Source: Actinomycetota bacterium (GTDB taxonomy: Bacteria > Actinomycetota > Acidimicrobiia > Acidimicrobiales > CADCSY01). Taken from it: a DNA stretch of 49,611 bases. Both the position numbers and the translations under genes were made by a program. A model generated the notes under the pieces. It saw only the letters and a program-made list of their open reading frames with translations. It had not been told where the DNA came from and searched no databases. This document shows positions 28,269-43,700 of this stretch, one piece after another; within the stretch, counting starts at the first letter, position 1; each line of letters starts with the position of its first letter. The stretch is taken from assembly GCA_019348555.1 (NCBI GenBank), contig JAHWJH010000002.1, positions 1 to 49,611 on the forward strand, read 5' to 3'.

Positions 28269-28343
28269 GCCGACGTTCTAGCCAACGCACCCTTACAGTC
28301 CTCGGCCAGGATCCTCACATTTGGGTGAACTCGTGGCGCGAGC

Positions 28344-29099: not shown

Positions 29100-30436
29100 G
29101 CGAGCTCGCCCGCCCGGGGAGGCCGTGGCGCCTCGCGGCCCTGGCAGTTGCCGGCCTGAGCATGGCGGCGGCGGTGGCGACCGCCGGTGGCATACCCGCC
29201 GACGAGGCGGTCCGTCTCGTGGTGCAGTCGAGCCTGGGGGCGGCGGCGACGGGCCTGGCCGTCTCGGGCCTGCTCTACGTCGTGCGGCGTCGCGCCATCG
29301 GCGTCCAGGTCGCCGTCGCTGCCCTGGCCCCGGTGCTGGCCGTGGGTCTCGGCGTGGGTTGGGCGGCGTCGCAGATGTTCATCACCAGCCACGACCTCTG
29401 GGTGCTGTGGGTGGTCCTGGTAGGGGCAGGGACCGTCGGCTTGGTCGTCGCGCTGCTACTCGGGCGAAGGATGTCCGAGGCGAGCGCGTCGGTGAGCGAC
29501 ATGGCGCGCCGTCTGGGTGAGCGCGGGCCGGGGTCGCGGCTGCGACAAGGGACCAGGCCGCTGCCCGGCACCGGGCCCCACGAGCTCGTCACGCTCGCCG
29601 TCGAGCTGGAGCAGACGTCGGCCCGGCTGGCCGACGCCCAGGCGCGGGCGGCGGCTCTGGAGCGGAGCCGTCGGGAGCTGGTGTCGTGGGTCTCCCACGA
29701 CTTGCGCACGCCCCTGGCCGGGATTCGGGCCATGGTGGAGGCGTTGGAGGACCGGGTGGTCGACGACCCCGAGACGGTGGCCCGCTACCACCGCACCATG
29801 CGCCAGGAGGCCGATCGCCTGGCCGGCCTGGTCGACGACCTCTTCGAGCTGTCGAGGATCCACGCCGGGGCCCTGGCCCTCGACCTCCGGCCGGTCGCCC
29901 TCGACGAGTTGATCGCCGACGCCGTCGCCGGCGCGTCCATCGCCGCCCGGGGCAAGGGCATCGTTCTGGTGGAGCAGGTCGAAGACCCGGCGCCGGTGGT
30001 GGAGCTGTCGACCCCCGAGATGGCGCGTGTGGTCCGCAACCTCCTGGACAACGCCATCCGCCACACCCCCGAGGGTGGGACCGTCGTGGTCCACGCCGCC
30101 GTCACGGACACCGGCTCCGTCGAGGTCTGGGTGCAGGACCGCTGCGGGGGCATCCCCGAGCGCGACCTGGACCACGTCTTCGACGTGGCCTATCGGGGAG
30201 ATACCGCCCGCACCCCCGGCGATGGTGGCGCCGGCCTCGGCCTGGCGGTGGCCCGCGGCCTGGTGGAGGCCCACCGTGGTCGGATCAGCGTTCGCAACGA
30301 GGGCCAGGGCTGTCGCTTCACCGTCTCACTTCCCGTTTCGGCGTCGCCCACGACGCAACCGTCTTCTCGTGGTCACAACGCGCCGGGAACGAACCGTCTC
30401 GACCACGAGAACGCGGGAGGCGCAGGTAGCCGGTGA
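29096..30436 (+). CDS. Sensor histidine kinase (two transmembrane segments, HisKA and HATPase_c domains)
   Basis: The GTG at 29096 overlaps the regulator stop (GTGA). H-box SWVSHDLRTPL, N-box NLLDNAIRHT, G-box GGAGLGLAVARG. Confidence 0.85.
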   Translation: MSELARPGRPWRLAALAVAGLSMAAAVATAGGIPADEAVRLVVQSSLGAAATGLAVSGLLYVVRRRAIGVQVAVAALAPVLAVGLGVGWAASQMFITSHDLWVLWVVLVGAGTVGLVVALLLGRRMSEASASVSDMARRLGERGPGSRLRQGTRPLPGTGPHELVTLAVELEQTSARLADAQARAAALERSRRELVSWVSHDLRTPLAGIRAMVEALEDRVVDDPETVARYHRTMRQEADRLAGLVDDLFELSRIHAGALALDLRPVALDELIADAVAGASIAARGKGIVLVEQVEDPAPVVELSTPEMARVVRNLLDNAIRHTPEGGTVVVHAAVTDTGSVEVWVQDRCGGIPERDLDHVFDVAYRGDTARTPGDGGAGLGLAVARGLVEAHRGRISVRNEGQGCRFTVSLPVSASPTTQPSSRGHNAPGTNRLDHENAGGAGSR

Positions 30437-31488
30437 GAGTGCTCGTCACCGGTGGCGCCGGGTTCGTAGGCTCTCGGGTCGTCACCGCCCTGGTCGAGCG
30501 TGGTGCCGACGTTCGCGTGCTCGACAGCCTCGATCCCGGCGTCCACGCCGTGGCTCCCGAGGTCGACGCCCGCGCCGAGCTGGTGGTGGGCGACGTCGCC
30601 GATCCCGCCGTGGCCGCCGCCGCCGTCGAGGACGTCGACGCCGTGTGTCACCAGGCGGCCAAGGTGGGCCTCGGCGTCGACTTCGGCGATGTGGGCGCCT
30701 ATGTGGCCGCCAACGACGTGGGGACGGCGAGCCTGCTCGGTGCCTTGTGGAGTCGGCGCTTCGACGGGCGCCTGGTGCTGGCCAGCAGCATGGTGGTCTA
30801 CGGGGAGGGCCGGTCGCGCTGCCCGCGCCACGGCCTGGTGGCGCCGGGCCCCCGGCGAGCGTCCGACCTCGACGCCGGGCGCTTCGACGCACCCTGCCCG
30901 CAGCCCGGCTGCGGGGAGACCGTGGAGGTGGCCGCGGTCACCGAGGACACCCCGGCCGACCCCCGCAACGTCTACGCCGCCACCAAGCTCCACCAGGAGC
31001 ACCTGTGCGCGCTGTGGGGTAGGGAGGCGGGCGCGTCGGTGGTGGCGCTGCGCTACCACAACGTCTACGGCCCGGGGATGCCGCGCGACACCCCCTACGC
31101 CGGCGTGGCCGCCATCTTCCTGTCGGCGCTGGCCCGGGGCCGGGCCCCCCAGGTCTTCGAGGACGGCGGCCAGACGCGCGACTTCATCCATGTCGACGAC
31201 GTGGCCCGGGCCAACGTGCTGGCCCTCACCGTCCCAGGTGCGGCCGGCGCCTACAACGTGGCCAGCGGCTCCCCCCACACCGTGTTGGACATGGCCGAGG
31301 CGCTGGCCCGGGCCACCGGCGGGGGTCTTCGACCCGAGGTCACCGGGCGATGGCGTGGCGGCGACGTCCGCCATGTCGTGGCCTCGCCACGCCGGGCCGT
31401 TGACCAGCTGGGGTTCGTCGCCGAGGTCGGCTTCGCCGAGGGCATGGCGGCGCTGGCGGCGTCGCCGCGCGCCCCCGCCGGGAGGTGA
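30433..31488 (+). CDS. NAD-dependent epimerase/dehydratase (extended SDR) with a Cys-rich insertion
   Basis: The GTG at 30433 overlaps the kinase stop (GTGA). VTGGAGFVGSRV and YAATKLHQE (Y-x3-K). The insertion is CPRHG...CPQPGCGE. Confidence 0.8.
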   Translation: MRVLVTGGAGFVGSRVVTALVERGADVRVLDSLDPGVHAVAPEVDARAELVVGDVADPAVAAAAVEDVDAVCHQAAKVGLGVDFGDVGAYVAANDVGTASLLGALWSRRFDGRLVLASSMVVYGEGRSRCPRHGLVAPGPRRASDLDAGRFDAPCPQPGCGETVEVAAVTEDTPADPRNVYAATKLHQEHLCALWGREAGASVVALRYHNVYGPGMPRDTPYAGVAAIFLSALARGRAPQVFEDGGQTRDFIHVDDVARANVLALTVPGAAGAYNVASGSPHTVLDMAEALARATGGGLRPEVTGRWRGGDVRHVVASPRRAVDQLGFVAEVGFAEGMAALAASPRAPAGR

Positions 31489-32987
31489 GCCGAGGCCCTC
31501 TCCGGGCAGCACCGGGCGTCCCGGCGGTGATCTTCCTCGCCGCCGCCGGTTGCGGCACGGCGCTCTCGGCGTCGATAGCCGCCGGTCCGCCTCTCCTCGA
31601 GGCACGCTGGCGCTTGCCGGCCCAACTCGCTCTGTGGGGCCTGGCGTGGGCCGTCGCCCTCGCCGCCGCCCTGCGACTGCCCACCCGTATGGCCCTGGTC
31701 CTGACGCTGGGCGCCGGGCTGGCGCTTCGGCTGGCCGCCCTGGCCGGGCCACCCACCACCTCGGACGACTTGTACCGCTACGCGTGGGACGCGCGGGTGC
31801 AGGCGACCGGCGTCAACCCCTACCTCCATCCTCCGGCCAGCGAGGAGCTGGCCGGTCTGCGGGAGCCCTGGCTGTGGCCCGACGACGCCGGGTGCGCCGA
31901 GCTCGACCGGCCGCCCGGGTGCACGAGGATGAACCGCCCGGCGGTGCCTACCATCTACCCCCCACTGGCGCAGGGTTGGTTCGTCGTGGTCGACACCTTC
32001 GCTCCCGGCGGCGGGCGTCACACCACCTGGCAGGTGGCCGGGCTGGTGACCGAGGTCGCCGTGCTGGTCCTGCTCCCGGTCGCCCTCGGCCGCTGGGGCG
32101 GCGACCGCCGCTGGAGCGCTCTGTACGCCCTGTCCCCGGGACCGGTGGTGGAGATCGTGCAGAACGGCCACGTGGACGGGCTGGCTGTCCTGCTCGTCGT
32201 GGGTGCCATGGTCCTCGTGGCCCCCCGTGAAGGCTCGTCCCGAGGGTCCCGCTCTCCGGGATGGCGCCACGTCGGTGCCGGTGCGCTCCTCGGCGCCGCC
32301 GCCATGGTGAAGCTCTACCCGGCGGTGATCCTGCTGGCGCTGGTGGGAGCCGGCACCGGCCGGCGCCTGACCGTCCTGGCCCGGGCCGGCGCCGGCGCCC
32401 TCGTCGTGGTCGTCGCCGGCTACCTGCCGCACGTGCTCGATGTGGGGTGGCGCCTGGTGGGCTACCTCCCGGGGTACCTGGCCGAGGAGGATTACCGCGA
32501 GGGGAGCCGGTTCCTGCTGGCGACGGCGCTGGGACTACCCCCGGCGGTGGCGGGGGCCGCCTCCGTGGCGGCGGTCCTCGGCGTGGCCGGCTGGGTCGTG
32601 GTCCGGCGACCCCCGCCCCCGGCGGGCGCAGCGGCCCTGCTGGGAGCCATGGTGTTGGCCGCCTCGCCGGTCCAGTCGTGGTACGCCGTCGTCCTGCTCG
32701 CCATGGCGACCATCGCCATCCAGCCGTGGTGGGCGGCCGTGGTGGTGGCCGGCCACCCGTACTACGTCGCCGTGTTGCTGGACCACCCCGACGCCACGAA
32801 CCTCGGCCGCCTCGCCTACGGCGCCGCCCTGGTGGCGGTGGTGGCCGGAGCCCTCAGCGCAGCTGCAGGTCGCCGTAGTCGACTTCCAGGTGCACCCGCT
32901 GCCGATCCAGCTCGGCCGCACCCTCCGACGGGTCCACGCCGACGCTGCCCGAGTAGCCCTCCGAGTGCAGGGCGGCGGTCCCGGTGA
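31485..32987 (+). CDS. GT87/DUF2029-family polytopic membrane glycosyltransferase (polyprenol-P-mannose-dependent mannosyltransferase-like)
   Basis: The GTG at 31485 overlaps the epimerase stop (GTGA). SDDLYRYAWDARVQATGVNPY, IYPPLAQ and AMVKLYPAVILL are typical of GT87. The last 45 codons or so overlap the convergent sigma gene and look non-native. Confidence 0.7.
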   Translation: MSRGPLRAAPGVPAVIFLAAAGCGTALSASIAAGPPLLEARWRLPAQLALWGLAWAVALAAALRLPTRMALVLTLGAGLALRLAALAGPPTTSDDLYRYAWDARVQATGVNPYLHPPASEELAGLREPWLWPDDAGCAELDRPPGCTRMNRPAVPTIYPPLAQGWFVVVDTFAPGGGRHTTWQVAGLVTEVAVLVLLPVALGRWGGDRRWSALYALSPGPVVEIVQNGHVDGLAVLLVVGAMVLVAPREGSSRGSRSPGWRHVGAGALLGAAAMVKLYPAVILLALVGAGTGRRLTVLARAGAGALVVVVAGYLPHVLDVGWRLVGYLPGYLAEEDYREGSRFLLATALGLPPAVAGAASVAAVLGVAGWVVVRRPPPPAGAAALLGAMVLAASPVQSWYAVVLLAMATIAIQPWWAAVVVAGHPYYVAVLLDHPDATNLGRLAYGAALVAVVAGALSAAAGRRSRLPGAPAADPARPHPPTGPRRRCPSSPPSAGRRSR

Positions 32988-34023
32988 GCTCGAGGCGCCG
33001 GCCCGGCGAGATCCGTTCGGGCGACTCACCCACGCCGGTGAGCTGGATCCACACCCGACCGTCGGCGCAGCCCAGCCAGAAGCCCTCGTTGGCGGGAACC
33101 GACTCGACGGGCAGGTCGTCGGCCTCGACCGGCCGTCCGCCGGACTCGGCGAGTCGGTCGGTCTCGGCGATCCCGACCCGGGACCCGTCCACGGTGAGGG
33201 TGCCCCCGCAGGCCGCCGGATCCCCGGAGCGAGCGACGAGGAGGACGGCCAGGGTGGCACCGGCGGCGGTGACCACCGTCGCCGTACGGGTTGGTCGTCG
33301 CCGCAGGCGGGTGCGCAGCCAGCGGGCCGACGCCGCAAGCGGCAGGAGCGGCCACACCGCCCGAAGCGGTCGTTGCCGCTCCAACAGGTCCTGGCTCAGT
33401 GCCGCGCAGCTCGGACACGCGAGCAGATGGCCGCCGGCGTCGAGCTCGCGCTGTCGCCGACGGTCGCCGGCGGAAAGGGCCATGAGCACGGGCCGACACG
33501 CCGGGGTCGGCGGCTGGACCCCGCCGAGGGCGAGGAGGTACTCGACCCGGAGCTTGGCTCGCGCCCGGAACAGGCGCAGGGATACGGCGCCGGACGAGGC
33601 CTGGAGCTCCCGAGCCAGTGAGGCGTTGTCCCTGCCCTCGACCTCACGGGCCACGAGGGTGGTGCGCTCGTCGTGGGAGAGCTGCCGCAGCGCCCTGCGC
33701 ACGGCCCTGCGCTCCTCGCTGGCCACCACCGCATCGTCCGGGCGCTCCGGCTGGGAGACGTCGGCCAAGCGGGGACCCAGACGCTCGCGGCGGTCCTCCG
33801 TGCGGCCCTCGGAGATGACCAGGTTTCGCGCCGACACCACCGCGTAGGCCAGCAGCGCCTCGCCTTCCAGCGACCGTCGGCACTCGAGGACGCGGGCGAG
33901 CGTCTCCTGCACGAGGTCGTCGACCCGGTGTGGATCGGCGACCCGGGCGGCGACGACCCGGCGGACGGCGGGCTCGAGGGCAGCGACGTCGGAGTCGCCT
34001 TCGTCCCGTTCCGAGGCGCTCAC
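32854..34023 (-). CDS. ECF sigma factor fused to a zinc-finger anti-sigma (ZAS) module, a transmembrane helix and an extracytoplasmic domain
   Basis: GTG at 34023 (the track ORF extends to 34137). Region 2 is DDLVQETLARV; region 4 is LSHDERTTLVAREVEGRDNASLARELQASSGAVSLRLFRARAKL. Then C-x25-HLLACPSC (H-x3-C-x2-C), the helix TATVVTAAGATLAVLLVA and a C-terminal domain of about 130 aa. No stop codon separates the modules. Confidence 0.75.
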   Translation of the reverse strand: MSASERDEGDSDVAALEPAVRRVVAARVADPHRVDDLVQETLARVLECRRSLEGEALLAYAVVSARNLVISEGRTEDRRERLGPRLADVSQPERPDDAVVASEERRAVRRALRQLSHDERTTLVAREVEGRDNASLARELQASSGAVSLRLFRARAKLRVEYLLALGGVQPPTPACRPVLMALSAGDRRRQRELDAGGHLLACPSCAALSQDLLERQRPLRAVWPLLPLAASARWLRTRLRRRPTRTATVVTAAGATLAVLLVARSGDPAACGGTLTVDGSRVGIAETDRLAESGGRPVEADDLPVESVPANEGFWLGCADGRVWIQLTGVGESPERISPGRRLELTGTAALHSEGYSGSVGVDPSEGAAELDRQRVHLEVDYGDLQLR

Positions 34024-34080
34024 GACGACTCGACCCCGGAGATCGGTCCGGTCCCGAGAGGACGAGGAGGAGCGGCCCGC

Positions 34081-34178
34081 GTAACGAAGTCGGTTCTCGT
34101 GCGTTTCATGGAGTGGAGGTGTCAGCGCCCGCCACACGGGGAGGGTAGGTCATGCAGCCCGAGCGAGGAGCAGGATGA
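34081..34178 (+). promoter_or_regulatory. Conserved intergenic element, copy A: ECF-type promoter motif, leader, strong Shine-Dalgarno sequence and 8-codon uORF
   Basis: GTAAC (34081-85), 16 nt, CGTTT (34102-06). The reverse strand reads TGAAAC, 16 nt, CGTTAC. A 22-nt block (34096-34117) is identical to 42832-42853. GGGGAGGG lies 6 nt before the ATG at 34152 (MQPERGAG, stop at 34176-78). Confidence 0.55.
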
Positions 34179-34254
34179 CCCCCACATCGCAGGCCAGGAT
34201 CGAGGCCCTCGTCGGCCCGAATCAAACGTGCTCGATCGGCACGGGTGGCCGGTG

Positions 34255-34707
34255 ATGCCGGGCACTCCGGGCCACAACGCTGCAGGCGACGACAGGTCCG
34301 TCTCCGAGCTCCTCGCCGACATGAGCAATCAGGTCAAGCTCCTCATCAGCAAGGAGGTGGAGCTGGCCAAGCTGGAGGTCAAGGACCAGGCCGCCAAGGC
34401 CTCCAAGGCCGGGGCGCTGCTGGCGGCGACCGGGGTGGCTGCGCTCTTCGGACTGTTGTTGGTGTCGTTCGCGGCGGCATGGGGCCTGGCCGCGGTGATC
34501 CCCACCGGCTTCGCCTTCCTCGTCGTCGGCGTGGTGTTCCTCGGGGTCGCCGCGGTGTTGCTCGGCAAAGGACGAAAGCAACTGGCCGAGGTCAGCCCCG
34601 CTCCCGATCAGGCCATCGCCAGCGTGAAGGACGACGTCCAGGTGGCCAAGGCGGCACTGTCGCGAGGGGCGAACCGCCCGATGGGCACTCCTGGGAGCCG
34701 GAGCTGA
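34255..34707 (+). CDS. Holin-X/DUF1469 family membrane protein (annotated 'phage holin family' in databases)
   Basis: Last 150 codons of track ORF 33673..34707 (ATG at 34255; GTG at 34252). SELLADMSNQVKLLISKEVELAKLEVKDQAAKASKAG is followed by two helices, as is typical of the actinobacterial DUF1469 family. Confidence 0.7.
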   Translation: MPGTPGHNAAGDDRSVSELLADMSNQVKLLISKEVELAKLEVKDQAAKASKAGALLAATGVAALFGLLLVSFAAAWGLAAVIPTGFAFLVVGVVFLGVAAVLLGKGRKQLAEVSPAPDQAIASVKDDVQVAKAALSRGANRPMGTPGSRS

Positions 34708-34708
34708 C

Positions 34709-35560
34709 ATGGGCTCGGACACCGAGGCGCTGACGCGGGACATCCGGCGGGCCCGTGCCGATCTGGCCACCACCCTCGAGGCCGTGGGCGACCGGATCGC
34801 CCCCAAGAAGGTGGTGGCGAGGGCCAAGGCCGACGTCGCCGAGCGGGTCGAGAACGTCCGCGAGCGAGTGAGCCCCACCCGCATGCTCGAGCGGCGGACC
34901 GAGGGGCTTCGTTCGGCCGTCGGCAACATCCAGGGTTTCGTGACCGAGAGGAAGGAAGACGTGGCCAGGAGCGACGGGTCGGAGCAAGGTCGGCTGCCGC
35001 AGCTGACCGGGACCGTGCGAGCACAGTCTCGGCGCCTGGCAGAGCGCACCGGCGATGTGACCGGCACGGTTGCCGGTGGCGCGCGGCGGGCGCCGGTCAG
35101 CCTTCGGGACCAGGCCGGCGACCATCCCTTCGTCGCCGGCCTCGTGGCTCTGGGGGGAGGCGCCCTGCTGGCCTCCCTGGTGGCGCCGTCGGACCGTGAG
35201 CGAAAGCTCGCCAGGCAGGTCAAGGAGAACGCGCAGCCGGTGAAGGACCAGGCCATCGAGGCCGGACGAAGCGTCGCCGACGAGATGCAACAGGCCGCCC
35301 AGGACCGTACCGAGCAGGTCAAGAAGCAGGCCCGCAAGGCAGCCGGAGAGGTCAAGCAGCAAGCCAGCGCCTCGACGCAGCGCACCAAGGGCCAGGCCAA
35401 GAAGGCGGCAACCCAGGTGAAGCGTCAGACCAAGGCGGCGACCAGCCAGGTCAAGGCCGAGGCAAAGCGCCCCTCGACCTCCGCCCCGGCCAGGACGACG
35501 ACCAAGGCGAAGGCCGGGCGGTCGGCGCCGGCGAAGAAGGTCGTCGCCCCCCGCCGTTGA
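34709..35560 (+). CDS. DUF3618 domain protein with a Lys/Ala/Gln-rich C-terminal tail
   Basis: 283 aa. TEALTRDIRRARADLATTLEAVGDRIAPKKV is the DUF3618 signature. It has a central helix (FVAGLVALGGGALLASLV) and a basic repetitive tail (KKQARKAAGEVKQQA...KKAATQVKRQTKAATSQVK). Confidence 0.7.
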   Translation: MGSDTEALTRDIRRARADLATTLEAVGDRIAPKKVVARAKADVAERVENVRERVSPTRMLERRTEGLRSAVGNIQGFVTERKEDVARSDGSEQGRLPQLTGTVRAQSRRLAERTGDVTGTVAGGARRAPVSLRDQAGDHPFVAGLVALGGGALLASLVAPSDRERKLARQVKENAQPVKDQAIEAGRSVADEMQQAAQDRTEQVKKQARKAAGEVKQQASASTQRTKGQAKKAATQVKRQTKAATSQVKAEAKRPSTSAPARTTTKAKAGRSAPAKKVVAPRR

Positions 35561-35606
35561 AGCACGACATCACCCACAGCAGACCCCACTACGACAGGAG
35601 CGACAG

Positions 35607-36365
35607 ATGCCCCAGCTCAGCTTCGAAGACGTCCAGCCCATGATCGACGCCAACCTCCTCGACGCCGAAGGCAGCAAGGTGGGCAAGATCGAGGACATCT
35701 ACCTCGACAACGACACCCAGGAGCCGGCATGGGCCCTGGTCCACACCGGCCTGTTGGGCCGCAAGCTCAACTACGTCCCGCTCAAGGGGGCCAGCGTCTC
35801 CGGCGACTCCCTGCAAGCTGCCTACCCCGAGGCCCAGATCAAGGACGCCCCCAGCATCGATCCCGACGTGGAGATCACCCCCGAGGAGGAGGCGCAGCTC
35901 TACCGGCACTACGGCGTGGATGCCGAGCCCCGGGTCCTGCACGCCGGTGACGTCGAGGCGGCGGCTGAACCCGACACCGGGCACGACACCAGCGGTCCCA
36001 CCACCGACGACGCCATGACCCGCTCCGAGGAGCAGCTGCAGGTCGGCACCGTGCGCCGACCCTCCTCGCTCGTGCGGCTGAAGAAGTACATCGTGACCGA
36101 GAACGTCCAGATGACCGTTCCGGTCCAGCGTGAGGAGGTCCGGGTGGTGCGTGAGCCGGTCACCGACGCCAACGTCGGCGCGGCGACGTCCGGACCGGAC
36201 CTCTCGGAGGAAGAGCACGAGATGACCCTGATGGAGGAGCAGGTGGTGGTCGACAAGCAGGTCGTTCCCAAGGAGCGGGTGCGCCTCGACAAGAGCGTCA
36301 ACGTCGACGAGGAGGTCGTCTCCGAGGAGGTGCGCAAGGAGCAGATCGACCTTGAGCAGCAGTAG
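35607..36365 (+). CDS. PRC-barrel plus DUF2382 (YsnF/AvaK-like) stress-response protein
   Basis: 252 aa. GSKVGKIEDIYLDNDTQEPAWALV (PRC barrel) and EEQLQVGTV...VRLKKYIVTENVQMTVPVQREEVRVVREP...EEQVVVDKQVVPKERVRL (DUF2382 repeats). AGGAG lies upstream. Confidence 0.75.
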   Translation: MPQLSFEDVQPMIDANLLDAEGSKVGKIEDIYLDNDTQEPAWALVHTGLLGRKLNYVPLKGASVSGDSLQAAYPEAQIKDAPSIDPDVEITPEEEAQLYRHYGVDAEPRVLHAGDVEAAAEPDTGHDTSGPTTDDAMTRSEEQLQVGTVRRPSSLVRLKKYIVTENVQMTVPVQREEVRVVREPVTDANVGAATSGPDLSEEEHEMTLMEEQVVVDKQVVPKERVRLDKSVNVDEEVVSEEVRKEQIDLEQQ

Positions 36366-36439
36366 GCCTGCCACCCCGCCGGAAGCCTCCTCTCCGTCGA
36401 CGCCCGTCGACCGCGAGCTTCCGTGGAGGAGGTGTCCCG

Positions 36440-36877
36440 ATGGTGCGGCTGGGCATCGCCGAGGCGAACTCGCGCTGTCTGGTGACCGTCCAGGGTGAGC
36501 TGAATCGACACGCCGGCCAGTGGTTGCGGGAGCATCTGGTGGCCCTCGCCACGCGCGGGTGCCGGCAGGTCCTGGTCGACCTGAGGGAGACGACGTTCAT
36601 CGACTCATCGGGACTGAGCGTCCTGATCGGGGCCATGGAGGGTATGGAGGACCTCGGGGGGCAGCTCGTCCTGCGGGCTCCGCCCGCCGGGGTCTACGAG
36701 GAGGGTCGAGTGCGCAGGCTCGGGGAGCTCATGGCCATCGTCGACGATGCCGTCGACGAGGCCGCGGCCATCGAGCGGTTGAGCACGTTGTTCACGGCCG
36801 GAGACCTCGAAGAACCGGGGACCGACGTGCAGAACTGGATCTACCGGGATGGAGGAGCATCCGTCGAGCCGGGATGA
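36440..36877 (+). CDS. STAS-domain protein (anti-sigma-factor antagonist-like)
   Basis: 145 aa. LVTVQGELNRHAGQWLREHL, VLVDLRETTFIDSSGLSVLIGA. GGAGGAGG lies upstream. Confidence 0.75.
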   Translation: MVRLGIAEANSRCLVTVQGELNRHAGQWLREHLVALATRGCRQVLVDLRETTFIDSSGLSVLIGAMEGMEDLGGQLVLRAPPAGVYEEGRVRRLGELMAIVDDAVDEAAAIERLSTLFTAGDLEEPGTDVQNWIYRDGGASVEPG

Positions 36878-36910
36878 ACCAACACCAAACCGAAGCGGAG
36901 AGGGGGAGGC

Positions 36911-37969
36911 GTGCCCGAGAGCGATGAGGAATGGCGCAGGCGCTGGGCCGAGATGATCGAGCGAGAGGGCGGGGACACCCGAGTGATCGGTCACCCGCAA
37001 CAGGTTCCGGAGTCGAGCGATGGCGGTGACGCCGAGCACCGCGCCCCGGAGAAGCCGACGGATCTGCAGAAGCCGGCGTTGGGAGGCGTCCTGAAGCGCA
37101 CGGCGCGGGAGTTCAAGGAGGACAACGTCACCGACTGGGCGGCGGCGCTCACCTATTACGGCGTGCTCGCCATCTTCCCGGCCCTCCTCGCCCTCGTCTC
37201 GGTGGTGGGGCTCCTGGGCCAGTCCGCCACCCAGGTGCTCATCGACAATCTCGGGAAGGTGGCGCCGGGCCCGGCGAAGGAGATCTTCACCACCGCCATC
37301 GAGAACCTGCAGCAGAGCCAGGGTGCGGCGGGGGTCCTCTTCGTCGTCGGCCTCGCCGCCGCACTGTGGTCGGCGTCCGGCTATGTCGCCGCCTTCATGC
37401 GCGCCTCGAACGCCATCTACGACGTCGAAGAGGGGAGGCCGTTCTGGAAGACCGGTCCGGTTCGACTGGGCGTGACGCTGGTCATGCTCGTGTTGCTGGC
37501 GATCAGCGCCCTTGCCGTGGTGCTCACCGGGGGGCTGGCTGACCAGGTGGGCCGACTGCTCGGCCTCGGTACGACGGTGGTCACCGTCTGGGATGTCGCC
37601 AAGTGGCCGGTGCTGCTGGTGATCGTCAGCCTGATGTTCGCCATCTTGTACTGGGCCTCGCCCAACGTCAGGCAGCCGGGCTTCCGCTGGCTCAGCCCCG
37701 GCGGTCTGCTGGCGGTGGTCGTGTGGTTGCTCGCTTCGGCGGCGTTCGCCTTCTACGTCGCCAACTTCGGCTCCTACAACAAGACCTATGGCGCGCTCGG
37801 CGGCGTGATCGTGTTCCTGGTATGGCTGTGGATCTCCAACATCGCCGTGCTCCTCGGCGCGGAGTTCAATGCCGAGCTCGAGCGAGGGCGCCAGATCGAG
37901 GCGGGCCACCCAGCGGATCAAGAGCCGTTCCTCGAGCCGCGCGACACCCGGAAGATGAATCGAGGATGA
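36911..37969 (+). CDS. YihY/BrkB family membrane protein
   Basis: 352 aa. LKRTAREFKEDNVTDWAAALTYYGVLAIFPALLALVSVVGLL, YGALGGVIVFLVWLWISNIAVLLGAEFNAE. Confidence 0.85.
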   Translation: MPESDEEWRRRWAEMIEREGGDTRVIGHPQQVPESSDGGDAEHRAPEKPTDLQKPALGGVLKRTAREFKEDNVTDWAAALTYYGVLAIFPALLALVSVVGLLGQSATQVLIDNLGKVAPGPAKEIFTTAIENLQQSQGAAGVLFVVGLAAALWSASGYVAAFMRASNAIYDVEEGRPFWKTGPVRLGVTLVMLVLLAISALAVVLTGGLADQVGRLLGLGTTVVTVWDVAKWPVLLVIVSLMFAILYWASPNVRQPGFRWLSPGGLLAVVVWLLASAAFAFYVANFGSYNKTYGALGGVIVFLVWLWISNIAVLLGAEFNAELERGRQIEAGHPADQEPFLEPRDTRKMNRG

Positions 37970-38039
37970 GCAACTCGTCCTCCCAACACACCAACATGCC
38001 CAGCTCGATGAGCGGGTCATCTCGCTATGGAGGTCAACA

Positions 38040-38828
38040 ATGAGTCTCGTCGCAGCAGTGGAGCTGAGCCGTGGCATCGAAGAGGCATGGGCCAACGTGG
38101 CGGCTTTTTTTCCGAAGTTCGTCGCGTTCCTCCTCATTCTGGTCGTCGGCATCTTCATCGCCAAGGCCCTGGCCAAAGCAGCCGACAAAATCCTCGAGCG
38201 GGTCGGATTCGACCAGGCGGTCGAGCGAGGCGGTGTAAAGCAGGCATTGTCGAAGTCGCAGTACGACGCCAGTGACATCGTCGGCAAGATCATCTACTAC
38301 GCCTTGGTCCTCTTCGTGCTCCAGTTCGCATTCGGCGTCTTCGGGCCCAACCCGGTTTCGGACCTGATCACCGGCGTGATCGGCTTTCTCCCCAGGGTCT
38401 TTGCCGCCATCGTCATCGTGGTGGTAGGCGCTGCCATCGCCGCTGCGGTGAAGGAGTTGCTCGAAGCGGCCCTCGGCGGTCTCAGCTATGGCAAGGCGCT
38501 CGCCGTGTCGGCCTCGGTCGCCATCCTCACCGTGGCCGGCTTCGCCGCCCTGAGCCAGCTCCGGATCGCCCCGGCCATCGTGAACGGTCTGTTCTATGCC
38601 TTGCTGGCCATCGTGGTCGGCTCGGCCGTCATCGCCATCGGCGGCGGTGGCATCCAGCCCATGCGCAGCAAGTGGGAACAGGCCCTGGGGAAGCTCGAGG
38701 AGGAGTCGCAGGCCGTGCGCCGGGAGAGCGCAGGAGCCGGTGAACGCATCCAAGGGCGGATGGAGCAGCGCACGTCGCAGCTCAGCACCTCCGAGGGCAC
38801 TTCCGAGCGACCACTTCGAGCTCAGTAG
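38040..38828 (+). CDS. Membrane protein with repeated 'conserved TM helix' motifs (PF05552-like)
   Basis: 262 aa. The ATG follows GGAGG. Four helix repeats (FVAFLLILVVGIFIAKALAKAA, IIYYALVLFVLQFAF, VFAAIVIVVVGAAIAAAVKELL, LLAIVVGSAVIAIGGG) and a polar tail. G+C is visibly lower than in neighbouring genes. Confidence 0.65.
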   Translation: MSLVAAVELSRGIEEAWANVAAFFPKFVAFLLILVVGIFIAKALAKAADKILERVGFDQAVERGGVKQALSKSQYDASDIVGKIIYYALVLFVLQFAFGVFGPNPVSDLITGVIGFLPRVFAAIVIVVVGAAIAAAVKELLEAALGGLSYGKALAVSASVAILTVAGFAALSQLRIAPAIVNGLFYALLAIVVGSAVIAIGGGGIQPMRSKWEQALGKLEEESQAVRRESAGAGERIQGRMEQRTSQLSTSEGTSERPLRAQ

Positions 38829-38831
38829 TCA

Positions 38832-38897
38832 GCCGGTGCACGGCGAAGGTGCCAGACGATGAGCGACACGGTGAAGGAACGACGCCGTGCAGCCGGC
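38832..38897 (+). other. Long-stem hairpin between the TM-helix gene and ppm1
   Basis: GCCGGTGCACGGCG (38832-45) pairs with CGCCGTGCAGCCGGC (38883-97): 14 bp with one bulged G and a 37-nt loop. It may be a terminator or attenuator; this is not proven. Confidence 0.3.
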
Positions 38898-38926: not shown

Positions 38927-39781
38927 GTGAGACGCACCCTGGTCGTCCTGCCGACCTACCTCGAGGCCGACAACCTGGAGGAGGTCCTCCGGCGACTGCG
39001 GGCGGCGGTACCGGCTGCCGACGTGTTGGTGATCGACGACTCGAGCCCCGACGGCACCGCCCAGGTGGCGAAGGCGGTGGGCGAAGAGCTCGGCCGGGTG
39101 GAAGTGTGGGTCAGGCCGGGGAAGGCGGGGCTCGGGAGCGCCTACCGGGACGGCTTCCGGCAGGGCCTGACCCGGGGCTACGAGGTGTTGGTGGAGATGG
39201 ACAGCGACCTCTCGCACGACCCGGCGGCACTGCCGGCACTGATCGCCGCCATCGACCAGGGGGCGGCACTGGTGATCGGCTCCCGGTACGTCCCCGGAGG
39301 GCGCATCCCGAACTGGTCGCTCTACCGGCGGTTGCTGTCTCGCTTCGGGAACCGCTACGCCGCCCGACTGTTGCGCCTCGACGTGGCCGACGCCACCTCG
39401 GGCTTTCGCGCCTACGACGGCGCCACCCTCGGCCGGCTCGACCTCAGCGCCGTCCGGGCGGACGGCTACGGCTTCCAGATCGAGATGGCCCATCGGATCT
39501 CCCGCCTCGGCGGTGGGGTGGTCGAGCTGCCCATCGACTTCGTCGAGCGCCATCGTGGGACCTCCAAGATGTCGTTGCCGATCGTGATCGAGGCGTTCGT
39601 GCTGGTCACCCGCCGTGGGCTGGGCCAGCGGCTGCAGAGCGTCGTGCGGGCGATCAGTCGCACGACTCCACGAGCTGCCTTCGGCCGCCGGGTGACGCCG
39701 GTAGGTGCAGATCGCGTACAGTGCAGCGGTACCGGAAACGTCCCTCTACACCTTTCAGGAAAGGACGCACCTCTACGATGA
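38927..39781 (+). CDS. ppm1: Polyprenol-monophosphomannose synthase (GT2, Ppm1/DPM1-like)
   Basis: GTG at 38927 (VRRTLVVLPTYLEADN); the track ORF starts at 38849. VIDDSSPDGT, EMDSDLSHDP, GSRYVPGG, TSGFRAY. The last 25 codons or so run through DNA homologous to the non-coding leader of the second lipoprotein copy. Confidence 0.85.
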   Translation: MRRTLVVLPTYLEADNLEEVLRRLRAAVPAADVLVIDDSSPDGTAQVAKAVGEELGRVEVWVRPGKAGLGSAYRDGFRQGLTRGYEVLVEMDSDLSHDPAALPALIAAIDQGAALVIGSRYVPGGRIPNWSLYRRLLSRFGNRYAARLLRLDVADATSGFRAYDGATLGRLDLSAVRADGYGFQIEMAHRISRLGGGVVELPIDFVERHRGTSKMSLPIVIEAFVLVTRRGLGQRLQSVVRAISRTTPRAAFGRRVTPVGADRVQCSGTGNVPLHLSGKDAPLR

Positions 39782-40035
39782 ACTCCCTTTGGAAGAAGGC
39801 CGCCGTAGGACTGATCGTCACCGGATTCTCGCTCGGAGCCACTGCCTGCGACGGTGACGGGGAAGGCACGGTGGAGGTGACCGAGACCGAGTTGGAGACC
39901 GAGCTCGAGATCGAGACCGAGACCGAGACCCAGACCCTCGAGCCGACCGAGACCGAGACCGAGACCGAGACCGAAGAGGTCGCCACCGAGACCGGCACCA
40001 TCACCGAGACAGAAACCGAGTTCCAGCCTCGGTAG
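39778..40035 (+). CDS. 85-aa lipoprotein with a highly acidic Thr/Glu-repeat mature region (copy 1)
   Basis: The ATG at 39778 overlaps the ppm1 stop (ATGA). The signal peptide and lipobox are MNSLWKKAAVGLIVTGFSLGATAC. The mature 61 aa contain 21 Glu, 2 Asp, 19 Thr and one basic residue (hand count): ...TETELETELEIETETETQTLEPTETETETETEE... Confidence 0.75.
   Translation: MNSLWKKAAVGLIVTGFSLGATACDGDGEGTVEVTETELETELEIETETETQTLEPTETETETETEEVATETGTITETETEFQPR
39946..39969 (+). repeat. In-frame hexanucleotide tandem repeat (ACCGAG)x4 inside lipoprotein gene copy 1
   Basis: Four perfect ACCGAG units, followed by the degenerate unit ACCGAA. They encode TETETETE. Further degenerate GAGACC units span about 39880-40020. 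Confidence 0.9.
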
Positions 40036-40169
40036 ATCGGTCCGCCGGCGCGGCGACCAGCCCCTCCTCCACTGCGGCCGTCCCCGGCGGGTCCACCACG
40101 GGTGCGCCGGACGGGGCTGAAGGCGGGCCCGCCCGGCGCTCGCATCGGAATGGCGGGTCCCGCCTCGGG

Positions 40170-41492
40170 TTGCTCGTGCCCGTGGCCCTCATCGTCATCG
40201 CCGCCTGTCTGCGCTTCGTCAACCTCGCCGAGCCACCCCGCCTCTACTTCGACGAGGTCTTCTACGCCAACGACGCCCGGTCCATGCTGGAGACCGGGGT
40301 GGAGGTGGATCGCCCGGCTCATCCCCCCGTCGGGAAGTGGCTCATCGCCGTCGGCATCGCCGTCATCGGCTTCGAGCCCCTGGGCTGGCGGTTGGCGAGC
40401 GCCACCGCCGGCACGCTGACGGTCCTCGTCACCTACTTCGCCGCATGGCGGTTGTTCCGCTGCCGGTGGCCGGCGGCGCTGGCGGCGCTGCTCGTCGCAT
40501 TCGACGGACTGGCGCTGACCATGAGCAGGATCGCCATGCTCGACGTCTTCGTGGGGCTGTTCATCGTCACCGGCTTCTGGCTCGTCGCCGTGGCGCTCGA
40601 CGACCGGCGATCGCCAGGTCGCTGTCTGGCCCTCGCCGGCATTGCCTTCGGGCTGGGCGTCGCCACCAAGTGGTCGGCGGTCTTCGCCCTGGTCACGGCC
40701 CTCGCCGTGGTCCTCGTGTCGCAGCTCCGGCAGGCCCGACGTAACCGCGCCGGAGGGCGTGCGATGGCCCGCGGCGTGGGTGTGGCGGCACTGTGCCTGG
40801 GGGTGCTGCCCATCGCCGTCTATGTGCTCGGCTACACGGGTTGGTTCGCCAACTACCACCACTCCGACGCCGGCCGTGACCGGTGCCCGGAGGGAGGCTG
40901 TGACGTCGGGATGACCGAGCGGGCACGGGTGTGGTGGGAGGAGCAGCTCGAGCTGGTGGACTACCACCAGCGCTTGCCGACGACGCATCCCTACCGCTCC
41001 TCGGCCACCACCTGGCCGCTGATGACCCGCCCGGTCCTGTACTACTTCGAGCGCTGCACGAACGAGCAGGTCCAAGCCGGTGAGCCCTGTGCCGTCGGCG
41101 TGGGCAACCGAGCCAAGATCCTGGGCCTCGGCAACCCCGTGGTGTGGTGGACCGGCCTCCTCGCCTACCCGGTGGTCGCCTGGTCGGCGCTCGTCCGCCG
41201 CCGCCGCTCCGCGCTCGCCCTCCTGGTGTTCCTCCTCGGCCAGTACGTGCCGTGGCTGCTGGTCGGCAAGGACGGCTACTTCTTCTATGCCACGCCTCTC
41301 GTCCCTTTCGTGGCCATGAGCGTCGCCCATCTCTGCATCCGGGCGGACGCGTCGAGGCGACTGCGGTGGTTGCCGGGCGGAGTCGCCGGGCTGGCTCTGG
41401 TGGCGCTCGTGTACTTCCTGCCAATCTGGTCAGGCGTCGAGCTGCCCCGGTCGGTGCTCGAAGCGCGCATGTGGCTGGACTCTTGGCGCTGA
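40170..41492 (+). CDS. pmt: Protein O-mannosyltransferase (GT39, actinobacterial Pmt)
   Basis: 440 aa. YFDEVFYANDA (DE motif in loop 1), HPPVGKWLIAVG, GWRLASA, ATKWSA and HPYRSSATTWPLM. The start is uncertain (TTG at 40170, GTG at 40176 or 40182). Confidence 0.85.
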   Translation: MLVPVALIVIAACLRFVNLAEPPRLYFDEVFYANDARSMLETGVEVDRPAHPPVGKWLIAVGIAVIGFEPLGWRLASATAGTLTVLVTYFAAWRLFRCRWPAALAALLVAFDGLALTMSRIAMLDVFVGLFIVTGFWLVAVALDDRRSPGRCLALAGIAFGLGVATKWSAVFALVTALAVVLVSQLRQARRNRAGGRAMARGVGVAALCLGVLPIAVYVLGYTGWFANYHHSDAGRDRCPEGGCDVGMTERARVWWEEQLELVDYHQRLPTTHPYRSSATTWPLMTRPVLYYFERCTNEQVQAGEPCAVGVGNRAKILGLGNPVVWWTGLLAYPVVAWSALVRRRRSALALLVFLLGQYVPWLLVGKDGYFFYATPLVPFVAMSVAHLCIRADASRRLRWLPGGVAGLALVALVYFLPIWSGVELPRSVLEARMWLDSWR

Positions 41493-42790
41493 GGCGCCGA
41501 GGTGGTCGCCGGCGGCCCGATCCCAGGCCCTCGAAGTGAGGCGACGATGATCCAGACCAGGGCGGCGGCGCGGAGGGCGACGGCCACCCCGAGCAGCCCA
41601 TAGTCGAGCGGTGGCTCCTCCCCGGCTCGCCCCCCCAGGTAGGCGAACTCGGCGGCGAACACGGCCAGGTCGGCGACGACGAAGACGGCGAACGGGGCTA
41701 CCCGGGGAAGGAGGAGGGCGAGCAGGGGGATCAGCCACAGGTCGTACTGCGGCGAGAACACCTTGTTGGTCACGAGGAACCAGGCGAGCAGCGGCAGCAG
41801 CAGCGTCCAGGTCGTCGCCGGGCGGCGCCGTCTGAGGCCGATGGCGAGCACGACCAGGGCGCCGGCGGCGAATGCCAGGGCGCTGGCGCGGTTGAGCGCC
41901 TGGCGGTCGAGGGCCACGCCACCGAGCTGGTCAGCCACCGCCCAGAGCGTGGACCAGCTGGCGCCCCGCTCGCGATTCACCTCGAAGAAGCGGCTCCACC
42001 CTTCCGGAGCGACGAAGGCCAGGGGGACGTTCACCGCCGCCCAGGCCACAGCGGCGCCGGCGATGTGGTGGCCGGCGGCGCGCCAGTTCCGCTGGCGCAG
42101 GCGCGCAGCCACGACCAGCGGGACGAGCAGGACGGGAAACAGCTTGGCGGCGGCGCCGAGCCCCGCCGCCACGCCGGCCGCCCCATCCCGCCCGTCCACG
42201 TGCAGAGCGACGGCGAGCACGGTGAGCAGCACCGGGAGCGGGTCCCAGTTCAAGGAGGCGTAGAGGACCAGAGGTGGCGCCCCCGCCCACCACAACTGCC
42301 TGCTGGTGGGCAGCTTCAACCGCCGCAGGATGAACAGGGTGGCCACCACGAACGCTGCGTTGAGCCCTGCATTGAGGTTGTAGAAGACCAGAACGCCGCC
42401 GCCCCAGGCCCTGGTGACCAGCGCCGTGGACCACATCTGCAGACCGATCAGGGGTGGGTACTCGAGCGGCTGATCGATGTAGGGGATGCGCCCGTCGGCG
42501 AGACCTCGGCCCGACCACAAGGCGACCAGGTCGCTGTAGCAATACTGGCGGAACTGCTCCCCGCCTTCCCAGCCCCCGTCGAAGATGCAGTGGCCCTTCG
42601 ACCACCAGCCGAGCACGAGGGCAACCCCGACGACTGCCAACGGGGCCCCACCGACGCGGCGATCGCGCTGTTCGGAACCATCCGACCTGGCCGCCTCCGA
42701 CGTTCCGCGCTTCAGCGACAGGCTCGGACGCGGCACAGTCCGGCGAGGATAGCGAGGGCGCCTTCGCCGCCTGAGGGGCTCCTCCCTCAC
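41285..42790 (-). CDS. GT87/DUF2029-family polytopic membrane glycosyltransferase (second, divergent paralogue)
   Basis: 501 aa. CYSDLVALWSGRGLADGRIPYIDQPLEYPPLIG and AAKLFPVLLV are typical of GT87. The C-terminal 70 aa or so are antisense to pmt and look non-native. The GTG start at 42790 is uncertain. Confidence 0.7.
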   Translation of the reverse strand: MREEPLRRRRRPRYPRRTVPRPSLSLKRGTSEAARSDGSEQRDRRVGGAPLAVVGVALVLGWWSKGHCIFDGGWEGGEQFRQYCYSDLVALWSGRGLADGRIPYIDQPLEYPPLIGLQMWSTALVTRAWGGGVLVFYNLNAGLNAAFVVATLFILRRLKLPTSRQLWWAGAPPLVLYASLNWDPLPVLLTVLAVALHVDGRDGAAGVAAGLGAAAKLFPVLLVPLVVAARLRQRNWRAAGHHIAGAAVAWAAVNVPLAFVAPEGWSRFFEVNRERGASWSTLWAVADQLGGVALDRQALNRASALAFAAGALVVLAIGLRRRRPATTWTLLLPLLAWFLVTNKVFSPQYDLWLIPLLALLLPRVAPFAVFVVADLAVFAAEFAYLGGRAGEEPPLDYGLLGVAVALRAAALVWIIVASLRGPGIGPPATTSAPQRQESSHMRASSTDRGSSTPDQIGRKYTSATRASPATPPGNHRSRLDASARMQRWATLMATKGTRGVA

Positions 42791-42960: not shown

Positions 42961-43218
42961 ATGAACTCGTTCTGGAACAAGGCCGCCGTGGGCGTGCTCG
43001 CCGCCGGCCTCTCGCTGGGGGCCACCGCCTGCGACGGGGACGGCGAAGGCACGGTCGAGGTGACCGAGACCGAACTGGACACCGAGCTCGAGATCGAGAC
43101 CGAGACCGCCACGGAGACCGTGGAGCCGACCGAGACCGAGACCGAGACGGTGACCGAAGAGGTCGCCACCGAGACCGGCACCATCACCGAGACGGAGACG
43201 GAGTTCCAGCCCCGGTAG
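42961..43218 (+). CDS. 85-aa Thr/Glu-repeat lipoprotein (copy 2)
   Basis: MNSFWNKAAVGVLAAGLSLGATAC followed by DGDGEGTVEVTETELDTELEIETETATETVEPTETETETVTEEVATETGTITETETEFQPR. By manual alignment, 73 of 85 residues are identical to copy 1. Confidence 0.8.
   Translation: MNSFWNKAAVGVLAAGLSLGATACDGDGEGTVEVTETELDTELEIETETATETVEPTETETETVTEEVATETGTITETETEFQPR
43129..43146 (+). repeat. In-frame (ACCGAG)x3 tandem repeat inside lipoprotein gene copy 2
   Basis: Three perfect units. The unit that is perfect in copy 1 reads ACGGTG here. Confidence 0.9.
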
Positions 43219-43265: not shown

Positions 43266-43700
43266 GTGGAGCGCCTGGTGATCGCCGCCGTCCTGGTGGC
43301 CCTCGCCGTGGTGGTGGCGGTGGTGCTCGACCGGCGCCGGCCCGACGCCCCGACCCAGGCCCGCTGGGCCGTGCCCACGCAGCTCGACCGGGGCGACTTC
43401 GCCCGCCCGGAGGCGCCTTGGCTGGTGGCGGTGTTCACCTCGGCGACCTGTGACTCCTGTGCCGGCGTGGTGGCGAAGGCCGTCCCGCTCGACGGTGGCG
43501 AGGTCGTCGTCCAGGAGGTGGAGATCGGCGCCGACCCGGCCCTGCACCGCCGCTACGGCATCGACGCCGTGCCGTGCCTGGTGGTGGCCGACGCCGAGGG
43601 CGTGGTGCGGGCCAGCTTCGTGGGGCCGCCCACGGCGACCGACCTGTGGGCGACGCTCGCCGACCTCCGGCGGGACGACGCGGCCAGAGCCGGCGACTAG
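43266..43700 (+). CDS. Membrane-anchored thioredoxin-fold protein (CxxC)
   Basis: 144 aa, GTG start. N-terminal helix LVIAAVLVALAVVVAVVL. WLVAVFTSATCDSCAG is the CxxC motif in a Trx-like context, and IDAVPCLVV is the cis-Pro loop region. Confidence 0.65.
   Translation: MERLVIAAVLVALAVVVAVVLDRRRPDAPTQARWAVPTQLDRGDFARPEAPWLVAVFTSATCDSCAGVVAKAVPLDGGEVVVQEVEIGADPALHRRYGIDAVPCLVVADAEGVVRASFVGPPTATDLWATLADLRRDDAARAGD

Follow-up and report, generated by a model that had tools for sequence, protein, structure and literature searches.

A threonine- and glutamate-rich lipoprotein encoded beside pmt is a candidate dedicated substrate of bacterial O-mannosylation

The DNA analysed here, hereafter the window, is a 49,611-nucleotide (nt) stretch of contig JAHWJH010000002.1 (assembly GCA_019348555.1) from an uncultured clade of Acidimicrobiia. 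It carries, on one strand, a Ppm1-type GT2 polyprenol-phosphate-mannose synthase (38927..39781, +; PF00535), a small open reading frame (ORF) for an 85-amino-acid (aa) Thr/Glu lipoprotein, lpp1 (39778..40035, +), and a GT39 enzyme of the protein O-mannosyltransferase family, Pmt (40170..41492, +; PF02366, PF16192 and PF13231). An earlier note on this DNA had picked out the trio and its families, and what it said of the sequence is borne out by the ORFs and Pfam matches, including the 388 nt between the GT2 stop and the pmt start and the ATGA at 39778-39781 that joins the ppm1 stop to the ATG of the small ORF. To these genes we add a second lipoprotein (lpp2, 42961-43218), a convergent GT87-family gene (41285-42790, −) and the distribution of the arrangement across other genomes. 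On the evidence of gene sequence and gene order, we regard the lipoprotein as the best candidate yet for a dedicated substrate of bacterial O-mannosylation.

The assignment of lpp1 draws on its composition, on orthologues 5' of pmt and on a family alignment. Its N terminus, MNSLWKK-AAVGLIVTGFSLGATA-C24, combines a K/R n-region, a hydrophobic h-region and a PROSITE-type lipobox (G-A-T-A-C) within a signal peptide spanning residues 1-23 (39778-39846, +), followed by Cys24 (39847-39849, +), the predicted lipidation site; this cysteine, and an Ala or Gly at −1, are kept in all 29 family members examined. By signal-peptide and lipobox criteria the product would be a bacterial lipoprotein, with lipidation and cleavage predicted; the small ORF matches no Pfam or NCBIfam model. 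The mature part is Thr-rich, as noted before: 19 of its 62 residues (Cys24 counted) are Thr, and 21 are Glu, with a net charge of about −20. Behind a short acidic linker (residues 25-30, + strand), the family alignment has a conserved GTVEVTETE start, a single invariant Pro within xEPTETETE, where the next residue is Thr or, in one member, Ser, and a TETETEF end. In most lineages Cys and Pro lie 30-32 residues apart, and the TETEF end lies 24 residues beyond Pro. Where the two arms are longer they are usually extended as a pair (+17/+18 in loci L029 and L045, +4/+4 in L028), an exception being L043, with six extra residues in arm 1 only.

Because lpp1 has a paralog with an excess of synonymous changes, recognizable orthologues and a conserved Shine–Dalgarno sequence, we conclude on sequence grounds that it is a real gene. 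The paralog, lpp2 (42961..43218, +), also encodes an 85-aa Thr/Glu lipoprotein; it has its own upstream region and is divergent from the GT87 gene. The two copies share 87% DNA identity with 18 synonymous and 12 non-synonymous differences (7 of the latter in the signal-peptide h-region), their homology is confined to the coding sequence and the Shine–Dalgarno, and the third-position GC content of lpp2 is 0.96. The lpp1 Shine–Dalgarno, AGGAAAGGA (39757..39765, +), lies 12 nt 5' of the ATG, and its GAAAGG core is kept 5' of the lipoprotein gene in seven relatives and 5' of lpp2. Orthologues are recognizable down to about 45% Pmt identity.

Attenuation by Thr-rich leader peptides is a classic mechanism, and the lpp1 ORF contains a (GACCGA)16 hexamer array, which together raise the alternative of a non-coding or regulatory leader, either a Thr-codon attenuator or a hypervariable hexamer repeat. 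Such a leader is very improbable: two classes have kept the signal peptide, lipobox and Cys, the paralogs show an excess of synonymous changes, and lpp2 stands alone, away from pmt. A hypervariable repeat locus was rejected on length: despite the array, seven genes of the clade all encode exactly 85 aa. An attenuator or terminator between lpp1 and pmt was likewise rejected, as the 134-nt spacer (40036..40169, +) holds no terminator-like site and its RNA folding is ordinary (z = 0.56).

Two further loci bear on the integrity of the gene. In L002 (6100-7000), two tandem lipoprotein genes lie between ppm1 and pmt, and their DNA is 100% identical over a stretch that begins 45 nt 5' of the gene and ends 20 nt beyond the stop, which marks a very recent duplication unless the assembly is at fault. 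In L214 (3529-3836), a frameshift divides the gene upstream of pmt into two ORFs, of 57 aa (signal peptide) and 45 aa (Thr/Glu). The gene is a pseudogene or the sequence contains an error, and a convergent YfhO gene lies downstream.

The upstream enzyme is assigned by its GT2 domain (PF00535, E 1.8e-25) and by its closest solved relative, the Pyrococcus furiosus Dol-P-Man synthase (5mlz, E 1.1e-30; compare ArnC, 2e-9). A GT2 protein beside the lipoprotein and pmt genes of Blastococcus xanthinilyticus is 50% identical by tblastn and is named polyprenol monophosphomannose synthase by NCBI (WP_166533012). NCBIfam returns only sub-threshold matches, to several synthases of polyprenol-P-sugars (AglJ, PpgS and a haloarchaeal hexose transferase). 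We infer a Ppm1-type enzyme that is presumably specific for mannose. Read from the GTG at 38927 to the stop at 39779-39781 it has 284 aa; the longest ORF begins at a GTG at 38849, and the start position is uncertain. An Lnt-type domain, to which ppm1 is linked in Corynebacterineae (PMC3460810), was found neither in this protein nor in the 28 window ORFs scanned, and the Lnt link is lineage-specific rather than essential to the family (PMC3460810). The 3' end of the window gene is unusual. Over 39640-39781 the ORF lacks the stop of its relatives, runs on for about 30 codons and ends within the lpp1 start, whereas in relatives 21-142 nt separate ppm1 from the lipoprotein gene. The ATGA overlap is unique to the window, and the idea that the module as a rule couples translation of lpp1 to that of ppm1 was rejected.

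Pmt scores above the cut-offs of three Pfam models (PF02366, 80.9 bits; PF16192, 67 bits; PF13231, 60.7 bits), and so has the GT39 architecture of an N-terminal PMT domain with a four-TM module at the C terminus. The DE motif reported previously, YFDEVFY, is present within LYFDEVFY, and its Asp-Glu pair (D28-E29, first outer loop) is invariant in 12 homologues. The protein reaches 155 bits against the NCBIfam equivalog NF058602 (cut-off 800), matches yeast Pmt1 weakly (6p25, E 2.2e-7) and is about 45-52% identical to the nearest Pmts outside its own clade. Sequence comparison places it in the GT39 family, but as a distant member, for which mannosyl transfer is predicted. Its length is 440 aa from the TTG at 40170, or 438 aa from the GTG at 40176 that is called in the protein collection. 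The GT87-family membrane glycosyltransferase that converges with pmt (41285..42790, −) is recognized by PF09594 (38.2 bits against a cut-off of 25, E 1.7e-9), and its Blastococcus orthologue (WP_166533015) is named 'glycosyltransferase 87 family protein'. Its true start is probably downstream of 42790. At their 3' ends the ORFs of pmt and GT87 share 208 nt (window 41285-41492), and the final ~75 aa of the GT87 ORF resemble read-through antisense to pmt; the corresponding overlap measures 63-82 nt in L002, in L003 and in L026, a Blastococcus locus annotated in RefSeq.

We surveyed the wider occurrence of the arrangement by scanning with a Pmt alignment, one genome per species (GTDB), which gave 80 loci; 82 Pmt-centred loci were counted overall. 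Both strands of each locus were searched for a lipobox followed by a Thr/Glu-rich tail, with flanks of ±8 kb, and the lipoprotein-positive count includes the window and two further contigs. The small ORF proves to be conserved: 22 loci carry the lipoprotein, always on the pmt strand and with its stop 73-207 nt 5' of the first aligned Pmt residue. Within the ±8 kb flanks there is no further copy except lpp2 in the window and the tandem copy in L002. The carriers are the window's own uncultured clade, other Acidimicrobiales (including Iamia) and, in a different class, seven Geodermatophilaceae genomes (Modestobacter and Blastococcus; six belong to named species or strains), with L214 as an additional lineage pairing lipoprotein and pmt. 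Pmt homologues at 85%, 83% and 70% identity lie in the order GT2, small ORF, pmt on contigs whose flanks differ, and a convergent GT87 is called in two of these three. In B. xanthinilyticus a pmt start is possible 4 nt after the lipoprotein stop, and the protein numbers there (Ppm1 TYP88100, Pmt TYP88102, GT87 TYP88103) leave one free for the intervening gene. Loci from Nitriliruptoria, Frankiaceae and Pseudonocardiales have nothing comparable 5' of pmt. In a neighbour-joining tree the lipoprotein-linked Pmts fall mostly in one clade.

Presence of the lipoprotein goes with two other genes, in counts that include related genomes and represent an estimated ~5-7 independent lineages. A convergent membrane glycosyltransferase of GT-C type, GT87 in some lineages and YfhO in others, follows pmt at 17 of the 22 lipoprotein-positive loci with enough sequence (18 if the partly diverged YfhO of L012 is included) against effectively 0 of 54 negative ones (Fisher p ~7e-13); the raw negative count is 1/55, the one being L008, where an assembly break has left just the 3' half of a lipoprotein-positive locus. 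Similarly, ppm1 lies within 8 kb of pmt at 16/22 positive and 1/60 negative loci (p ~3e-11), which means that 16 of the 17 loci with ppm1 near pmt also have the small lipoprotein gene. The placement of ppm1 varies. Only the window clade has it on the same strand; in Geodermatophilaceae it is divergent, a few loci have it downstream, and it was not found within 8 kb of pmt in several Acidimicrobiales. The conserved unit is the lipoprotein gene followed by pmt, together with a convergent GT-C gene (GT87 or YfhO); ppm1 is a frequent, movable fourth member. The proposal in the earlier note, of a donor synthase, an acceptor and a transferase brought together in one locus, stands in so far as the module is conserved and not a chance arrangement, although its constant core is lipoprotein and pmt rather than ppm1 and pmt. 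Two checks that the note itself had named, conservation of the small ORF and its presence where ppm1 and pmt are neighbours elsewhere, come out in its favour. The ATGA overlap of ppm1 and the small gene, which the note had pointed out, does not extend to the relatives.

Two loci that have no Thr/Glu lipoprotein, L040 (~6850-7855) and L073 (~6530-7624), contain candidate ORFs ending 146 and 377 nt 5' of pmt, with tails of acidic Ser/Thr/Asp/Phe repeats (FTDDSG..., SDFSDYSDF...). These may be analogous neighbours of pmt.

The lipoprotein family is not confined to the vicinity of pmt. A profile search of 1.84 billion representative proteins gave four matches at E <= 1e-10. A protein search with the family alignment returned few matches; among the strongest with usable genomic context, two that came from this search alone (P0002 and P0003) are encoded directly 5' of pmt. 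Looser small acidic lipoproteins (P0130, P0139 and P0126) are not beside pmt, and in larger lipoproteins (P0137, P0138, P0140 and P0148) a Thr/Glu stretch forms the tether before a globular domain. In L213 (412-1444), a 1.7-kb contig without pmt, three small acidic lipoprotein genes (82, 85 and 55 aa) stand in tandem. Protein-level counts underestimate the family, because small proteins that were called on their contigs are missing from the collection: the exact lipoprotein sequences of seven genomes (L001, L002 and five Geodermatophilaceae) are absent from a collection of 15 billion proteins, those of L001 and L002 although the gene is called on the contig. A metagenome scan with the lipoprotein alignment gave 600 pattern matches, of which 0 passed tblastn confirmation, with a low-complexity filter suspected; the first 120 matches to a back-translated EPTETETE were unrelated proteins, with no small lipoprotein and none near pmt. 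Neither scan informs on how often the lipoprotein stands apart from pmt.

This wider occurrence of acidic lipoproteins bears on a second alternative, in which lpp1 encodes an independent, unglycosylated polyanionic envelope protein (for cation binding, hydration or contact with mineral surfaces) that is merely co-regulated with glycan genes. A net charge of about −20 would suit such a protein, Thr/Glu tethers are common in the larger lipoproteins, small acidic lipoproteins occur in unrelated contexts (the L213 trio among them) and the window is full of envelope-glycan genes. The position of the gene is over-specific for co-regulation, however, being always on the same strand and directly 5' of pmt while the flanks otherwise differ, and presence of the lipoprotein predicts both ppm1 and the second GT-C beside pmt. 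We consider this explanation unlikely, while giving it real weight.

Structure prediction suggests that the lipoprotein is more than low-complexity sequence. AlphaFold2, run on an 8-sequence alignment, models one long β-hairpin (39868..40023, +) made of strands 31-55 (arm 1, 39868-39942, +) and 58-82 (arm 2, 39949-40023, +) joined by a turn at Pro56-Thr57 (39943-39948, +), a model with which the invariance of Pro56 and the arm lengths agree. Confidence, as the predicted local distance difference test (pLDDT), is 94-95 over residues 40-70. In a control run on a 9-sequence alignment, the Thr/Glu tether of the larger lipoprotein P0138 comes out as low-confidence coil (pLDDT 40-55), which makes the hairpin less likely to be an artefact of composition. 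In the membrane-proximal half of the predicted hairpin, Thr stands opposite Thr and Glu opposite Glu on alternate rungs, so that one face carries Thr and the other Glu; towards the turn, Thr lies across from Glu. The model does not look like a mucin-like disordered O-glycosylation domain and points instead to an ordered protein, with one Pro, a length fixed within the clade, arms of 30-32 and 24 residues across lineages, and a pLDDT of 94 in the hairpin against 40-55 in the control.

An isolated two-stranded ribbon of 25 residues per arm is unlikely to be stable alone, and a third alternative is that the hairpins assemble into a membrane-anchored β-structure (barrel, sheet or fibre) resembling the stems of β-pore-forming toxins, with glycosylation controlling assembly. 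The segregated faces would fit, and the nearest Foldseek shapes in the Protein Data Bank are indeed the stems of such toxins, among them anthrax PA, CDTb and aerolysin. None of these is a significant structural relative (best E 0.16), the face that would have to be hydrophobic is mainly Thr, the monomer model is based on 8 sequences, and an outer membrane is not known in these bacteria. We judge assembly of this kind to be quite improbable.

We favour the reading, at a probability of roughly one half, that the lipoprotein is a dedicated Pmt substrate and that the adjacent GT-C extends its glycan. The gene pattern supports it: the constant place of the lipoprotein gene before pmt, its co-occurrence with the convergent GT-C and with ppm1, and the clustering of lipoprotein-linked Pmts in the tree. 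Among known actinobacterial Pmt substrates, lipoproteins form the largest class (PMC6593405), which favours a substrate. So does the Pro before Thr/Ser, which is the one invariant residue other than Thr or Glu and provides the context recognized by the M. tuberculosis Pmt, an enzyme that needs P-[S/T] (PMC6593405, PMC12331936). Two independent duplications, lpp2 in the window and the identical tandem copy in L002, together with the strong Shine–Dalgarno, suggest that the product is required in large amounts, unlike a 1:1 subunit.

The same data can be read for a clade-specific partner of Pmt and/or the GT-C that is not itself a substrate, for example an acidic membrane-anchored hairpin whose task is to bring in cations or acceptor proteins, or to regulate or stabilize the enzymes. 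The predicted hairpin has a fixed length, a turn that does not vary and separate faces of Thr and Glu, as such a partner might; the tight operon-like linkage to pmt and the co-variation with a particular Pmt clade point the same way. An obligatory subunit is disfavoured because Pmt works without a partner in model Actinobacteria and in whole Pmt clades that lack the lipoprotein, such as that of Nitriliruptoria. The duplications imply a dosage above 1:1, and family members exist without an adjacent pmt. The GT-C is moreover exchangeable between two families (GT87 and YfhO), for which a shared substrate is an easier explanation than a shared subunit. A partner role is, in our estimate, doubtful, a shade more so than an independent polyanion.

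Several observations weigh against a dedicated substrate. Mapped actinobacterial Pmt sites are flanked by Pro, Ala or Gly (PMC6593405), whereas 18 of the 19 Thr in lpp1 are flanked by Glu, which would make these atypical acceptors and perhaps leave only the P-T in use. The recognition loop of the M. tuberculosis Pmt failed to bind a Ser/Thr peptide that lacks Pro (PMC12331936). Related lipoproteins are encoded apart from pmt in Aquipuribacter (L084) and in L210, L085, L087 and L213; P0125 and Aquipuribacter P0131, which share the family motifs, are not adjacent to pmt, and lpp2 itself lies outside the operon. The conserved length, invariant turn and confidently predicted hairpin appear to exceed the needs of a simple glycan carrier. 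The sugar specificity of the GT2 is presumed from its family, and the co-occurrence statistics count related genomes, with only ~5-7 independent lineages behind them.

If the lipoprotein is a substrate, the pathway can be sketched as follows. Ppm1, judging by its family, would load mannose from GDP-mannose onto polyprenol phosphate at the cytoplasmic face. The 85-aa precursor, to go by its conserved signal peptide and lipobox, would be exported, lipidated at Cys24 and cleaved. Pmt would then transfer mannose from polyprenol-phosphate-mannose to Thr of the emerging chain, as the pairing of lipoprotein and pmt genes suggests, most likely at the invariant Pro56-Thr57 and possibly at many of the 19 Thr; the glycan may sit mainly at the hairpin tip. 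The convergent GT-C (GT87 here, YfhO elsewhere), whose co-occurrence with the lipoprotein hints at this role, would add a sugar at the outer face. The mature product would be a lipid-anchored, strongly anionic β-hairpin with arms of about 25 residues, Thr on one face and Glu on the other, serving as an abundant glycosylated envelope component.

Further genes near the module can be recorded separately. Directly 3' of lpp2 is a thioredoxin-like protein with an N-terminal hydrophobic segment (43266..43700, +), which has weak matches (TIGR00411, E 6e-7; PF13098 and PF00085 below cut-off). No thioredoxin-like gene was found beside the module in the other surveyed loci, and its membership is uncertain. 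Four Pmt cysteines in predicted outer loops (C239, C244, C296 and C307) are invariant in 12 homologues; the thioredoxin-like gene lies at 43266-43700. Much of the window (2196-23135 and 27618-32987) is a large envelope-glycan region that holds an ABC-2 transporter, three GT4 enzymes, a DUF2079 protein, a 1079-aa GT2 fusion and sugar epimerases, as well as another GT2 (2196-2939, −; 30% identical to Ppm1), with a second window GT87 at 31485-32987. Recurrent neighbours, in varying order and on either side (window 32854-38828; L002 9886-15368; L003 1-4598), are a sigma-70 factor, a DUF3618 protein, a PRC/DUF2382 protein, a holin-like protein, BrkB and a mechanosensitive-channel-type membrane protein.

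The enzymes themselves belong to a known pathway. As in S. coelicolor (SCO1423/SCO3154), M. tuberculosis (Rv2051c/Rv1002c) and C. glutamicum, GT2 and GT39 families are combined and the same chemistry is expected: the GT2 makes polyprenol-P-mannose, the GT39 uses it on exported Ser/Thr, and lipoproteins are major substrates (PMC5882110, PMC6593405, PMC3460810). In those model organisms the genes are unlinked (ppm1 and pmt of S. coelicolor are sco1423 and sco3154; PMC5882110) and no substrate is co-encoded, whereas here synthase, lipoprotein, Pmt and a second GT-C share one locus. Unlike in Corynebacterineae, there is no Lnt domain or gene beside the window ppm1. What the earlier note said of the Ppm1/Lnt link and of the unlinked model genes agrees with the literature (PMC3460810, PMC5882110). 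The Glu-flanked Thr of the window lipoprotein also differ from the mapped Pmt sites, which are Pro/Ala-rich. An engineered C. glutamicum operon that places a GT39 enzyme and its target mannoprotein on one transcript, from work in which actinobacterial Pmts could prefer cognate substrates (PMC11727336), resembles the window in joining Pmt and a (here candidate) substrate in one unit; that operon is synthetic and serves large cellulases with Pro/Thr linkers, whereas the window locus is natural and its lipoprotein has 85 aa.

The window locus shares with natural substrate-transferase operons a putative substrate gene directly beside the transferase gene, conserved in 22 loci. Such operons include P. 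aeruginosa pilA-tfpO (pilO), the serine-rich-repeat adhesins with GtfA/B, HMW1-HMW1C and sublancin sunA-sunS. As in pilA-tfpO, the gene of the putative substrate comes first, followed by that of a membrane transferase that would use a polyprenol-linked donor. Unlike here, the enzyme families and substrates of those operons include neither GT39 nor a lipoprotein, and modification in the window is a proposal.

Glycosylation of lipoteichoic acid and lipoglycans (in B. subtilis and Listeria lipoteichoic acid and by mycobacterial PimE/Rv2181; PimE structure, PMC12041525) employs a GT2 of CsbB/GtrB type with a YfhO-type or GT87-type GT-C, the enzyme types that neighbour pmt in the module. These systems involve a lipid-anchored polyanion at the outer face and GT-C enzymes that use polyprenol-phosphate sugars supplied by a cytoplasmic GT2. 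Here, by contrast, the polyanion would be a gene-encoded Glu/Thr peptide rather than poly-glycerolphosphate or mannan, and action of the GT-C on a peptide is a proposal. A more speculative extension, which we hold to be rather unlikely, is that the module makes a gene-encoded counterpart of these polymers: a lipid-anchored, polyanionic Thr/Glu β-ribbon of fixed length, mannosylated by Pmt and decorated by GT87/YfhO, acting as an anionic envelope polymer in Acidimicrobiia and Geodermatophilaceae. Literature searches on the repeat motif, the gene context of pmt and Geodermatophilaceae glycoproteins returned no prior description, and we found no published natural pmt-linked substrate candidate, lipoprotein family of this kind or association with GT87/YfhO.

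Work on bacterial protein O-mannosylation has been confined almost entirely to Mycobacterium, Corynebacterium, Streptomyces and Cellulomonas, organisms that have provided no consensus acceptor, no agreed benefit for non-pathogens and no enzyme-linked substrate gene (PMC11727336, PMC6593405). Short low-complexity genes are largely missing from protein databases, and similar substrate genes may therefore be overlooked elsewhere. The occurrence of the module in cultured Blastococcus and Modestobacter makes the proposal directly testable. If it is true, biochemistry and structural studies of Pmt-substrate recognition would gain a minimal acceptor from nature, 62 residues long, GT87/YfhO would become candidate elongating enzymes for O-mannosyl glycans, a step to which no enzyme has yet been assigned, and the module would offer a genetic handle on the purpose of the pathway in environmental Actinobacteria.

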